DNA of 28,312 nt, from NCBI GenBank assembly GCA_964364395.1, contig CAYILY010000002.1, forward strand, positions 1 to 28,312, read 5' to 3'. A program made the position numbers and the translations under genes. The notes beneath the pieces are model-generated. The model was not told the DNA's origin. It made no database searches and was given only the letters and a program-made list of their open reading frames with translations. Positions 8,339 through 10,136 of this stretch are shown one piece after another (position 1 is the first letter of the stretch; the number at the start of each line of letters is the position of its first letter). The stretch comes from an uncultured Gammaproteobacteria bacterium (GTDB lineage: Bacteria; Patescibacteriota; Patescibacteriia; UBA2169).

Positions 8339-8376
8339 AAAAAAAGAAGCCCCTCGTATCCTGTGATAGGGCTTCT
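8339..8376 (-). terminator. Intrinsic terminator closing the cassette-like array
   Basis: Minus strand AGAAGCCC...GGGCTTCT followed by a T run. Confidence 0.7.
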
Positions 8377-8391
8377 AAGACTGCTTTTTAT

Positions 8392-8468
8392 CTTTCCTCA
8401 AATTACTATTAACTAGTAGTTTAAGGAAAGCAGGGGAGGAAGATCGCGATTGTTTGCGACTCCTCCCC
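8392..8468. repeat. Array repeat copy 1 (double palindrome)
   Basis: CTTTCCTCAAATTACTA..TAGTAGTTTAAGGAAAG (8392-8430) plus GGGGAGGAAGATCGCGATTGTTTGCGACTCCTCCCC (8433-8468). Confidence 0.9.
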
Positions 8469-8476
8469 CAAGGTGT

Positions 8477-8836
8477 TCAACTCCACAACCCGGTCCAGAT
8501 ACCCACGACATAGCCGAGAGTACCGAGCCAGATTGGGATTGTGCTCAAACCCATGGCCGTCGTAAAACTAGACGGCGGATTCCAGCTCGGATCGATGACC
8601 TGCTCGAAGTGGCCACCCAGCCGGTAATTGCTGCTGTAGCGGGGTTGGGTGTTCAGGCCGATCACCCCGAAGATCAAGGAAGCCACGAACAGGCCGAAGG
8701 CGGTCAGGTCGCTGTTCGGGAAGTTCACCGGTCCGATTGTCGAGAGGCCGTAGAAAGCCGACAACAGCAGGCCGATGATCAGGCCTGTGACGCCGGAGTA
8801 GCTGATGCGCTCCTGTGTGGTAGTTTCGGTGGTCAT
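8477..8836 (-). CDS. Hypothetical membrane protein (array cargo C, 119 aa)
   Basis: About 3 TM segments; AAGGAGG SD 5 nt before ATG; stop 8 nt from repeat 1. Confidence 0.8.
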   Translation of the reverse strand: MTTETTTQERISYSGVTGLIIGLLLSAFYGLSTIGPVNFPNSDLTAFGLFVASLIFGVIGLNTQPRYSSNYRLGGHFEQVIDPSWNPPSSFTTAMGLSTIPIWLGTLGYVVGIWTGLWS

Positions 8837-8904
8837 GACGTCCTCCTTGTGGAGTGTTTTTTACCTCGCCGAAGCGGGGCGGTTTGTGGGGAGCGATTTT
8901 TGTT

Positions 8905-8979
8905 CTTTCTCCAAACTACTACATCTAGTAATCTAGAGAAAGCAGGGGAGGAGATCGCGGTTGTTTGCGATTCCTCCCC
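8905..8979. repeat. Array repeat copy 2
   Basis: CTTTCTCCAAACTACTACATCTAGTAATCTAGAGAAAG (8905-8942) plus GGGGAGGAGATCGCGGTTGTTTGCGATTCCTCCCC (8945-8979). Confidence 0.9.
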
Positions 8980-8990
8980 AAGCTACCACC

Positions 8991-9215
8991 CTATCTCGTT
9001 TGGAGGGCGCGGGTGGTTCTGTGCCTGCGGTGGTTGGCCAACAAGTCGGCCGTGCTGTCGGCCATGATTTCATCCATGGCGGCGACGAATCGACGGTTGT
9101 CCTCATTCATCCGCCGATACTGTTCATGCTGCCATGCCAGTGTCCGGTTCAATTCTTGGCGTCCTTTCTTGCCGCTGAACACCCACAGAAACATGAACTG
9201 CAAAAATTCGATCAT
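8991..9215 (-). CDS. Hypothetical protein (array cargo B, 74 aa)
   Basis: GAGGAGG SD; hydrophobic N-terminus then a coiled-coil-like segment; stop 11 nt from repeat 2. Confidence 0.7.
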   Translation of the reverse strand: MIEFLQFMFLWVFSGKKGRQELNRTLAWQHEQYRRMNEDNRRFVAAMDEIMADSTADLLANHRRHRTTRALQTR

Positions 9216-9282
9216 CGGAGTCCTCCTCTGGTTTTGTGGTTTTGCCTCTATTGAGGCGGGGTTTTGAGGTGCATTTTTTGTT

Positions 9283-9359
9283 CTTTCTCCAAACTACTAA
9301 AATTAATAATCTAGAGAAAGCAGGAGAGTAAATCGCGATTGGTTGCGACTTACTCTCCT
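9283..9359. repeat. Array repeat copy 3
   Basis: CTTTCTCCAAACTACTAAAATTAATAATCTAGAGAAAG (9283-9320) plus AGGAGAGTAAATCGCGATTGGTTGCGACTTACTCTCCT (9322-9359). Confidence 0.9.
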
Positions 9360-9380
9360 CATTTGTGCGAAGTCCGTGAT

Positions 9381-10013
9381 TCAGCTTGCGAGCGACATGG
9401 CCTGGGGGCCATCCGGCTCGTTGTTCGGCTTCTTGAAGCCTTTGGTACCGAGGAGTACCGACCACCAAGTCTGGGGGAACTCGACCTGATTGGCTGGGGT
9501 CGGCGCACTGTTCGGCTTGGTCGCCTGCCAGAGGAGTCTATAGGCGTAGCCGAAAAAGAGGATGAAGCCGATCGGGGACAGGGTCTGGATGGCGAAACCA
9601 TCAAACCCTCCCCACCAGCCAGTCGGCGCCATGTTGTCCAGGGTGATCCTATGGTAAATGAAGTTCACCGCGGATCCGACCATGAATGTCGACATCAGGC
9701 TCAAGATAATTTTGGTCTTGGTGTCACCCGAACTGTGCCAGTAGAACATGATCACGAAGAAGACCAGAGCCAGAGATGCGTAGAACGCAAATACTGTCTC
9801 GCCGAATTCGTGCTGGTAATTCGCGTGAGCAGCCCAGCCGTTGATGCCGAAGTTGACCCAGGCCGCCACTTCCATCGCCTGCCTGTTCCAGCCGATCGTC
9901 TTCATGATGTTGAAGTGGTCTGCTCCCATCATCATGAAGACGGTGATGAGTACCAATCCGATCACCCGCATGGCGGTCAGCTCATTGCGGACGCGAGACA
10001 GAAAGCTGTTCAT
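9381..10013 (-). CDS. Hypothetical multi-pass membrane protein (array cargo A, 210 aa)
   Basis: About 5 hydrophobic segments; AAAGGGAGG SD; stop 21 nt from repeat 3. Confidence 0.8.
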   Translation of the reverse strand: MNSFLSRVRNELTAMRVIGLVLITVFMMMGADHFNIMKTIGWNRQAMEVAAWVNFGINGWAAHANYQHEFGETVFAFYASLALVFFVIMFYWHSSGDTKTKIILSLMSTFMVGSAVNFIYHRITLDNMAPTGWWGGFDGFAIQTLSPIGFILFFGYAYRLLWQATKPNSAPTPANQVEFPQTWWSVLLGTKGFKKPNNEPDGPQAMSLAS

Positions 10014-10107
10014 CTGTGACCTCCCTTTCTTGGGGGTTGGGTTTGGCCTGCCTTTTGGGCGGGAACGGATTTTTTGGATATGTACGCTATTGATTTTCTA
10101 TAAAATA

Positions 10108-10136
10108 AGTATACCATTTATAACAAGTCTTGTCAA
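10108..10136 (-). promoter_or_regulatory. Consensus sigma70 promoter driving the array
   Basis: Minus strand TTGACA-17 nt-(TGG)TATACT. Confidence 0.8.

Follow-up and report, generated by a model that had tools for sequence, protein, structure and literature searches.

A two-hairpin element follows the genes of a hypervariable envelope-protein operon in groundwater Komeilibacteria

Several described systems place structured elements between the genes of a single transcription unit. In phage T7, a strong promoter is followed by unrelated genes, which are separated by a family of similar intercistronic RNase III signals (R0.3, R0.5, R1, R1.1, R1.3 and others) and closed by a terminator. Processing by RNase III leaves each T7 cistron with a stable 3' hairpin. 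The repetitive extragenic palindromic (REP) hairpins of malE-malF, the puf hairpins, and the internal terminators that set stoichiometry are likewise stable stem-loops located just past a stop codon within an operon, with a GC-rich base, a pyrimidine-rich tail, and an expected effect on dosage. Integrons, as well as clusters of attC sites lacking an integrase (CALIN), carry co-oriented promoterless open reading frames (ORFs) behind one promoter, each followed by a structured repeat that is conserved in structure more than in sequence, and their content varies between strains. Here, we describe a locus that shares features of layout with all three groups. It is an array of three genes, each followed by one copy of an element of ~89 nucleotides (nt) made of two adjacent, very stable hairpins, at positions 8339-10136 of a 28,312-nt stretch of DNA (hereafter the window; contig CAYILY010000002.1, positions 1-28,312, forward strand, assembly GCA_964364395.1) from a groundwater Komeilibacteria bacterium of the Candidate Phyla Radiation (CPR, or Patescibacteria). 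CPR genomes are tiny and few regulators are known from them, and the post-transcriptional biology of these bacteria has hardly been studied.

The locus also departs from each of these systems. The T7 signal is one longer interrupted stem, whereas two separate hairpins of 13-17 bp are present here; in addition, the array is chromosomal, belongs to a CPR genome, and has no sequence relationship to T7, and cleavage of its transcript is a prediction. Compared to the REP and puf hairpins and internal terminators, the element forms an operon-specific family in which the two-hairpin architecture is fixed and the junction strongly conserved, and it is found at one locus per genome among a hypervariable set of genes. 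Unlike integrons and CALIN, the array has no IntI and none of the R'', L'', L', and R' boxes; instead of a single imperfect hairpin formed by pairing of its ends, each repeat makes two independent hairpins, and the copies show positional orthology and slow turnover. The "minimal mobile elements" of Neisseria and the switching of capsule loci are similar in that conserved flanks bracket unrelated or diverged coding segments, and mosaic alleles occur here too; however, the conserved segments of the array are short structured intergenic modules inside an operon and not flanking housekeeping genes. REP sequences, bacterial interspersed mosaic elements (BIME), miniature inverted-repeat transposable elements (MITE), and REP doublets forming hairpins (REPIN) occur in many dispersed copies and in both orientations, in contrast to three copies at one locus on one strand. 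Last, clustered regularly interspaced short palindromic repeats (CRISPR) and tandem interspaced guide RNA (TIGR) arrays contain short non-coding spacers, while the intervals here hold complete ORFs with their own Shine-Dalgarno (SD) sequences.

The two-hairpin element and its operon

The three repeats (R3, R2, and R1 in the order of transcription) are genuine copies of an undescribed two-hairpin element. They lie in one transcription unit on the minus strand, which encodes orphan, mostly membrane-bound envelope proteins and consists of the following parts:

10108..10136, minus strand: near-consensus sigma-70 promoter, TTGACA-17-TG-TATACT, scoring 11/12 plus the TG extension, which heads the array
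10014..10107, minus strand: C/A-rich 5' leader with a small GC hairpin and the SD AAGGGAGGT, read from the sequence
9381..10013, minus strand: ORF210, 210 aa, orphan membrane protein of helical structure from a rare family, encoded by the operon's conserved first gene, with a GGAGG-type SD
9275..9364, minus strand: R3, with hairpin 1 at 9359-9322 and hairpin 2 at 9320-9283 (type A), then AACAAAAA; covariance model 88.9 bits, minimum free energy (MFE) -44.3 kcal/mol, z = -10.3
9216..9274, minus strand: ORF74 leader, with the motif TGCACCTCAAAAC, the small hairpin GCCTC-aata-GAGGC, and the SD GAGGAGGA
8991..9215, minus strand: ORF74, 74 aa, small and mostly hydrophilic, with its own GGAGG-type SD
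8897..8985, minus strand: R2, with hairpin 1 at 8979-8945 and hairpin 2 at 8942-8905 (type A), then AACAAAAA; covariance model 99.9 bits, MFE -45.2 kcal/mol, z = -8.6
8837..8896, minus strand: ORF119 leader, with the small hairpin CGCCCCGC-ttcg-GCGAGG and the SD AAGGAGGA
8477..8836, minus strand: ORF119, 119 aa, orphan multi-pass membrane protein, with a GGAGG-type SD
8384..8474, minus strand: R1, with hairpin 1 at 8469-8432 and hairpin 2 at 8430-8392 (type B), then ATAAAAA; covariance model 96.4 bits; no cistron follows
8339..8376, minus strand: canonical intrinsic terminator, a GC hairpin GAAGCCCCT...AGGGGCTTC followed by T7 (seven T), read from the sequence

A first-pass annotation of the sequence had proposed this layout with repeats starting 8-21 nt past the stop codons. 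All coordinates were confirmed, and we measured distances of 21, 11, and 8 nt from the stops of ORF210, ORF74, and ORF119 to the start of hairpin 1. The promoter at 10136-10108 was the sole promoter-like site found by a promoter scan of 8200-10300 on the minus strand. The terminator at 8376-8339 was missed by our terminator scan because its loop exceeds 8 nt.

Hairpin 1 has the form GGGGAGGA-ATCGC-(A-rich loop)-GCGAT-TCCTCCCC, with purines in its 5' arm and pyrimidines in its 3' arm. Directly after it, the pyrimidine tract CTTTCTCT... pairs with a downstream purine tract, ...GGAGAAAG, to form hairpin 2 of ~17 bp, which is followed by AACAAAAA and the leader of the next cistron. Folding of the three copies gave MFE values of about -42 to -45 kcal/mol (z = -7.7 to -10.3 relative to dinucleotide shuffles). 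The outer ends of the repeat are not complementary, and it folds as two separate hairpins and not as one imperfect hairpin. Between R3 and R2, the stem of hairpin 1 carries compensatory changes, and the hairpin-2 halves, both of type A, are 91% identical. The loops differ between the copies of one genome.

In the 769-kb assembly (103 contigs, 89% complete), the repeat is confined to the array locus, as determined with blastn and with a covariance model built from 12 copies (see below). The model search yielded three matches of 89 to 100 bits and nothing else above 26 bits, which shows that the repeat is not a genome-wide terminator. The three copies are spaced by 378 and 511-512 nt. A search of the whole window against Rfam gave no match at the gathering threshold, and a search of 8300-10200 at E up to 5 gave two chance-level matches only. 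Consistent with the first-pass claim that attC boxes are lacking, no RYYYAAC...GTTRRRY box pair at 40-130 nt spacing was present on either strand of 8301-10200. Exact-pattern scans of two collections, genome_contigs and metagenome_contigs, returned only the relatives G001 and G004 and chance matches; thus, the element is rare in both. Among 60 relatives searched at the DNA level, the hairpin was found only in G001.

Conservation of the element and turnover of the genes around it

The family to which the genome belongs includes "Candidatus Komeilibacteria" RIFCSPLOWO2_02_FULL_48_11, and contigs identical to those of the assembly come from Hainich groundwater. Using the ORF210 family, we recovered the syntenic loci of relatives, in which the array lies between a divergent UvrD-PD-(D/E)XK helicase gene and the atp operon. 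Most of them are on short metagenomic contigs, and those of L019, L024, and L030 are partial. These loci of related Komeilibacteria provided nine further distinct full copies of the element (modules), along with partial and duplicate ones, in the following arrays:

G001/L025: promoter, 32-aa peptide, module, ORF209, module
G004: ORF224, module, ORF123, terminator
L023: ORF186, module, ORF117 (orthologue of ORF119), module, ORF98 (paralogue of ORF117), ORF132, terminator as in the window
L026: ORF206, module, ORF103, module, ORF197, module, ORF205 (paralogue of ORF197), terminator, then a second unit
L029: ORF205, module, Ig-domain protein

When the 12 distinct copies from seven loci were re-aligned to the model, 89.7% of the cells paired and compensatory changes were found in 15 of the 30 pairs. 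None of 500 shuffles reached the observed values of pairing or compensation, and sliding of the 3' partner reduced pairing to 47-59%. These statistics were taken from the covariance-model re-alignment, since the MAFFT alignment mis-registered bulges; such a re-alignment leans toward the model structure, for which the slid and shuffled controls compensate. Hairpin 2, with compensatory changes in 8 of its 17 pairs, is as conserved in structure as hairpin 1. On the opposite strand, conserved U·G pairs such as pair 58-95 (9 of the 12 copies) would turn into A·C mismatches. In 10 of 12 copies, the sense strand gave the more stable fold, with a mean advantage of 5.8 kcal/mol, and the covariance model scored it at 89-100 bits, as compared to at most 26 bits for the antisense strand. 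These data indicate that the hairpin structure is under selection on the sense strand.

The fold persists even where the sequence is replaced. The top of hairpin 1 is exchanged for unrelated stems and loops in L029 (with a loop of five bases, GAAAA), L030, and G004, and hairpin 2 is wholly different between genera. The most conserved sequence comprises the base of hairpin 1 and the junction CCTCCCCTGCTTTCT. All copies are in the sense orientation, 8-37 nt past a stop codon, and are followed by an A-tract and an SD leader. The hairpin-2 subtypes show positional orthology. In four genomes, the module after the first gene is of type A; type B comprises R1 of the window and its orthologue, copy b of L023, after which two further genes follow. 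Because this positional orthology extends across genera, the subtypes represent stable landmarks rather than sites traveling with cassettes. The tops of hairpin 1 assort between loci independently of the hairpin-2 types.

The genes between the modules have a different history. Across relatives, the promoter, leader, modules, and terminator share ~73-92% nucleotide identity, while the intervening genes differ and the downstream genes are different at every locus compared. The array promoter is kept in L019, L023, L024, L029, and L030, and the window terminator is 92% identical to the one closing the L023 array. The GC hairpin of the 5' leader is weak in the window and strong in relatives, and the homologous leaders of L019, L023, L024, and L029 bear covarying hairpins. 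Gene content and order thus vary between the window, L023, L026, L029, G001, and G004, a point on which the first-pass proposal depended. That non-coding frames are much more conserved than the coding sequences they enclose is an unusual evolutionary pattern, and it makes the locus well suited to studying how recombination drives surface variation in CPR.

An AT-rich block, TATTTAGGCTTATTTTAGCCAAAAATAGCCTATTTT, occupies window positions 10137-10190 between the divergent array and helicase promoters, and an inverted repeat within it, TAGGCT...AGCCTA, immediately precedes the -35 hexamer. The block is kept in L019, L023, L024, L029, and L030 and may be an operator or an UP element.

The contrast between flanks and cargo is already visible in the first gene. 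Identity of the helicase protein to that of the window is 93% in L024 (N-terminal part), 84% in L023, 78% in G001, 73% in L026, and 70% in G004, yet proteins of the ORF210 family share only 23-30% identity across relatives. The ORF210 allele (9381-10013) is a mosaic as compared to L024:422-1051. From the promoter through the leader to the first codons, nucleotide identity is 79%; the membrane core has ~25% protein identity and no nucleotide similarity; and the C-terminal tail (the last ~40 residues) returns to 75% identity, with the sequence just past the stop also conserved. A candidate functional link of the array to the neighboring helicase was dropped, as conserved synteny is a sufficient explanation for their proximity.

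ORF74 provides an example of gain or loss. The syntenic L023 array lacks it, and in the window a type-A module lies on each side of it (R3 and R2). Its homologues, at 60 and 48% identity, stand alone, each with a promoter and a terminator of its own, and are neighbors of Replic_Relax and TraG/VirD4-like genes. The position between repeats of the same subtype, together with homologues next to relaxase and coupling-protein genes, suggests that the locus acquires foreign genes behind one promoter and that ORF74 was probably taken from a mobile element. The homologue family consists of small conserved proteins with the motif GKKGRQEL...DEIM(A/T)DST; its loci (L056:880-4210 and L060:717-962), in which the gene is convergent with a gene of ~272 aa, come from soil or groundwater and TARA ocean assemblies.

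Modules do not separate every pair of genes. There is none between ORF98 and ORF132 of L023, and none follows the last ORF of G004, ORF123. The contigs of L019 and L025 break within a repeat. Toxin-antitoxin insertions were present at array edges, with a RelE-like pair between the helicase gene and the promoter in G001 (L002/L025) and a HigB-like pair past the terminator in L023 (2707-3200), indicating that the borders of the locus also accept insertions. The neighboring ORF157 (window 7423-7896), which is secreted or lipoprotein-like, shows an array-like pattern of a conserved frame around a fast-changing coding sequence: the protein is 29% identical to its positional orthologue (L023:3317-3799), while its promoter and leader are 92% and its terminator is 82% conserved.

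RNA-level and DNA-level readings of the element

The same architecture was found at other loci, including some in other CPR families. The covariance model detected weaker arrays (30-42 bits), in which a GC hairpin is followed by a CUUUCC...GGAAAG hairpin, an A-tract, and an SD leader. In G077, which belongs to a different CPR family, 8-9 modules are distributed over an 8-kb operon (L051 = G077:C2:95500-106500, minus strand), where they separate small membrane or secreted genes and the genes for signal peptidase I (lepB), a pilin-like protein, and an M50/CAAX protease; two of these modules are nearly identical. G026 also carries copies, and G004 has a second double-hairpin locus. On contig C17 of G004, the last copy stands directly upstream of a canonical terminator, as R1 does in the window, which implies that the double hairpin is not itself the main terminator. 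Judging from these sequences, the two-hairpin design is general in this CPR class.

The element most likely shapes the operon mRNA and is probably not an integron-like recombination site. With moderate confidence, we consider the repeat to be an RNA-level intercistronic module for processing, stability, or attenuation, whose conserved sequence also provides homology for gene swapping. We favor this explanation because the stems covary with a bias toward the sense strand, the placement between stop codon and SD is fixed, the intergenic regions lack a promoter, the design recurs between ordinary genes and before terminators, RNase III and RNase J are available, and no recombinase is adjacent. 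The genome encodes RNase III (rnc on contig C27) and RNase J; searches of the assembly, which is 89% complete, detected no RNase E/G, RNase Y, RNB, or Rho.

In the transcript, the repeat would fold into two adjacent hairpins, with the conserved C/U-rich junction after hairpin 1 pairing with a downstream purine-rich arm to form hairpin 2. An A-rich single-stranded linker would come next, followed by the small 5' hairpin and the SD of the next cistron. RNase III or RNase J could cleave the polycistronic mRNA, either within the stems or within the A-rich linker; alternatively or additionally, transcription could terminate partially at hairpin 1. Each cistron would then end in a protective 3' structure and the next would start with a protective 5' hairpin, setting the relative stability and dosage of the cistrons. 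The structure, its conservation and covariation, its confinement to one locus of the genome, and the gene flux are observed; we infer both this function and the nucleases that would act in it. Given that its conservation far exceeds that of the genes on either side of it, the module would also offer portable homology, at which ordinary homologous recombination might duplicate, delete, or swap the intervening genes. Such recombination would account for the ORF197/ORF205 and ORF117/ORF98 duplications, the presence or absence of ORF74, and the mosaicism.

Several observations weigh against an RNA-level module. The base of hairpin 1 and the CCUCCCCUGCUUUCU junction are ~85-90% conserved across genera, which is above the need of a generic stabilizer and hints at a specific partner. 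Classical RNase III substrates measure ~20 bp or more, a length that neither stem reaches, at 13-17 bp each. Strand-specific G·T pairing might also fit a folded single-stranded DNA site, as in attC, and both the independent assortment of hairpin-1 tops and hairpin-2 types and the bracketing of ORF74 by type-A modules would be expected from crossover at the junction. If the RNA-level reading holds, a covarying two-hairpin module between the hypervariable genes of an envelope operon would be a new class of structured RNA. With the analogous elements in other CPR lineages, it may indicate a general way of organizing and diversifying surface proteins, which are the likeliest mediators of host attachment and phage exposure.

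The first-pass annotation had favored an integron-analogous system that accretes cassettes behind one promoter. In such a system, the double hairpin, most likely its conserved pyrimidine junction, would be the recombination site, in the form of folded single-stranded or of double-stranded DNA, and a recombinase whose gene lies at another place would capture and excise units made of hairpin 2, leader, ORF, and hairpin 1 downstream of the fixed promoter. Part of this proposal agrees with our results, as every relative has its own gene content and order between syntenic flanks, and ORF74, between its type-A modules and with homologues next to Replic_Relax and TraG-like genes, looks foreign. The independent assortment of the two hairpins fits a junction crossover; moreover, the array ORFs have a GC content at third codon positions (GC3) of 0.73-0.79 as compared to a genome median of 0.52, R1 follows the last ORF even though no cistron comes next, and two contigs of relatives end inside a repeat. 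The attC-like site is the part that was not supported. No recombinase was found in the 28-kb window, as the first pass had stated for integrases, or in any syntenic locus, one of which was read over 10.6 kb of a 57-kb contig. A PF00589 search of the whole assembly (89% complete) detected a single tyrosine recombinase, on another contig (C71), with none called at the window locus or at the syntenic L020, L021, L023, and L026. Besides the lack of attC boxes, the hairpins covary independently, and the subtypes stay orthologous by position over a span of 70-84% helicase identity, which indicates that gene turnover is slow. Modules are missing between ORF98 and ORF132 of L023 and after ORF123 of G004; in the first gene, the limits of the replaced segment are the start codon and a point within the coding sequence, not modules; the loops, as would-be crossover spacers, differ between copies within one genome; and the same design separates housekeeping-type genes in other families. 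We therefore consider an integron-analogous system quite unlikely. The same low probability applies to the capture of genes by junction crossover as a previously unknown process of ultra-small CPR bacteria, which would use a recombinase acting in trans, the single Xer-type enzyme, or structure-directed recombination in place of an adjacent integrase. If the junction were a dedicated recombination site, it would constitute a second, integrase-independent solution to gene-cassette capture. Hypervariable envelope operons would be assembled downstream of a single strong promoter, and genes of conjugative elements could enter them, as ORF74 suggests.

Two further explanations were considered. The modules could be merely leaky internal intrinsic terminators, in which hairpin 1 and the U/C-rich tract step expression down from the first to the last gene and hairpin 2 is incidental. 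The GC-rich base of hairpin 1, followed by UGCUUUCU or UUCUCUCU, is consistent with this, as are the better U-tracts of the G026 and G077 analogues and the failure to find Rho in the genome. When the modules were passed through the terminator scan, R3 was accepted (five T in eight, in the tract UGCUUUCU), and it was the only one. The U-tract is poor, however, with UGC at its first three positions, and an incidental role is difficult to reconcile with the compensatory changes in hairpin 2, which is as conserved in structure as hairpin 1. Furthermore, a canonical terminator lies within 10 nt of R1, and likewise on G004 C17, where it would be redundant if hairpin 1 terminated efficiently. Leaky termination as the whole explanation is thus unlikely. 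It is very improbable that the repeats are selfish MITE- or REP-like DNA, palindromic operators for a DNA-binding protein, or a duplicated terminator-plus-promoter module. They are palindromic, ~90 bp long, and intergenic, as such elements would be, but they are present at a single genome locus, have a uniform orientation and position relative to stop codons, lack terminal inverted repeats and target duplications, and are orthologous by position across genera. Symmetric compensatory changes in the stems, together with the U·G pairs, favor base pairing over protein recognition of half-sites. The terminator-plus-promoter module, which the first pass had named as its alternative, is rejected, as the intergenic regions contain no promoter hexamers.

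Array proteins and related loci in the window

As stated by the first-pass annotation, the three ORFs share no visible similarity and have SDs of their own: BLASTP found no mutual similarity between ORF210, ORF74, and ORF119 at E<1. Diverged tandem paralogues as the source of the three ORFs were rejected on this basis. Paralogue pairs do occur in relatives, namely ORF197/ORF205 of L026 and ORF117/ORF98 of L023. The description of all three products as hydrophobic was accurate for ORF210 and ORF119, which are multi-pass membrane proteins (ORF119 with two transmembrane segments over threshold), but not for ORF74, which has a grand average of hydropathy (GRAVY) of -0.79 and a short hydrophobic stretch at the N terminus only.

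Searches of Pfam, PHROGs, and NCBIfam gave no family for the array ORFs of the window, and most of those scanned from the relatives likewise had none in Pfam. Phage and plasmid collections contained no match to the array or to ORF74. The first pass had also reported no cas gene in the window; Pfam scans bearing on cas and tas genes covered the three array ORFs, two downstream small ORFs, and the helicase, with the rest of the window not scanned, and returned just a sub-threshold Cas4-type match in the helicase. The ORF210 family has 12 representative clusters among 1.84 billion proteins. The AlphaFold2 model of ORF210 is helical (predicted local distance difference test score of 74), and Foldseek found no match to it in the PDB at E<0.9. 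In L023, ORF119 matches an orthologue at 74% identity and a paralogue at 34%.

GC3 of the array ORFs (0.79 for both ORF210 and ORF119) lies above the 99th percentile of the genome, 0.70. This could reflect a foreign origin or, possibly, GC-biased gene conversion at recombination-prone loci. ORFs of this class (0.73-0.79) are found in the window at 8477-10013, 19220-19792, and 20329-20799, and others are on contigs C10, C33, and C42. In G004, the further double-hairpin locus likewise follows high-GC3 genes. The extended form of the array promoter, TTGACA-N14-TGGTATRMT, has three occurrences in the genome, each before a high-GC3 ORF, and all three fall in the window.

A second locus, at window positions 18958-21130 on the minus strand, consists of two tandem units with the common extended promoter TTGACA-N14-TGGTATGAT. 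Versions related to the AT-rich block of the array are present upstream of both promoters. Each unit has a near-identical leader, CGCACCTTCCTAAAAC, followed by a hairpin CCGCCCGCCCCGCAAATGCG...GGC, and its own terminator. The cargo ORFs of the two units, of 190 and 156 aa, are unrelated to each other; both encode signal peptides and have a GC3 of 0.77.

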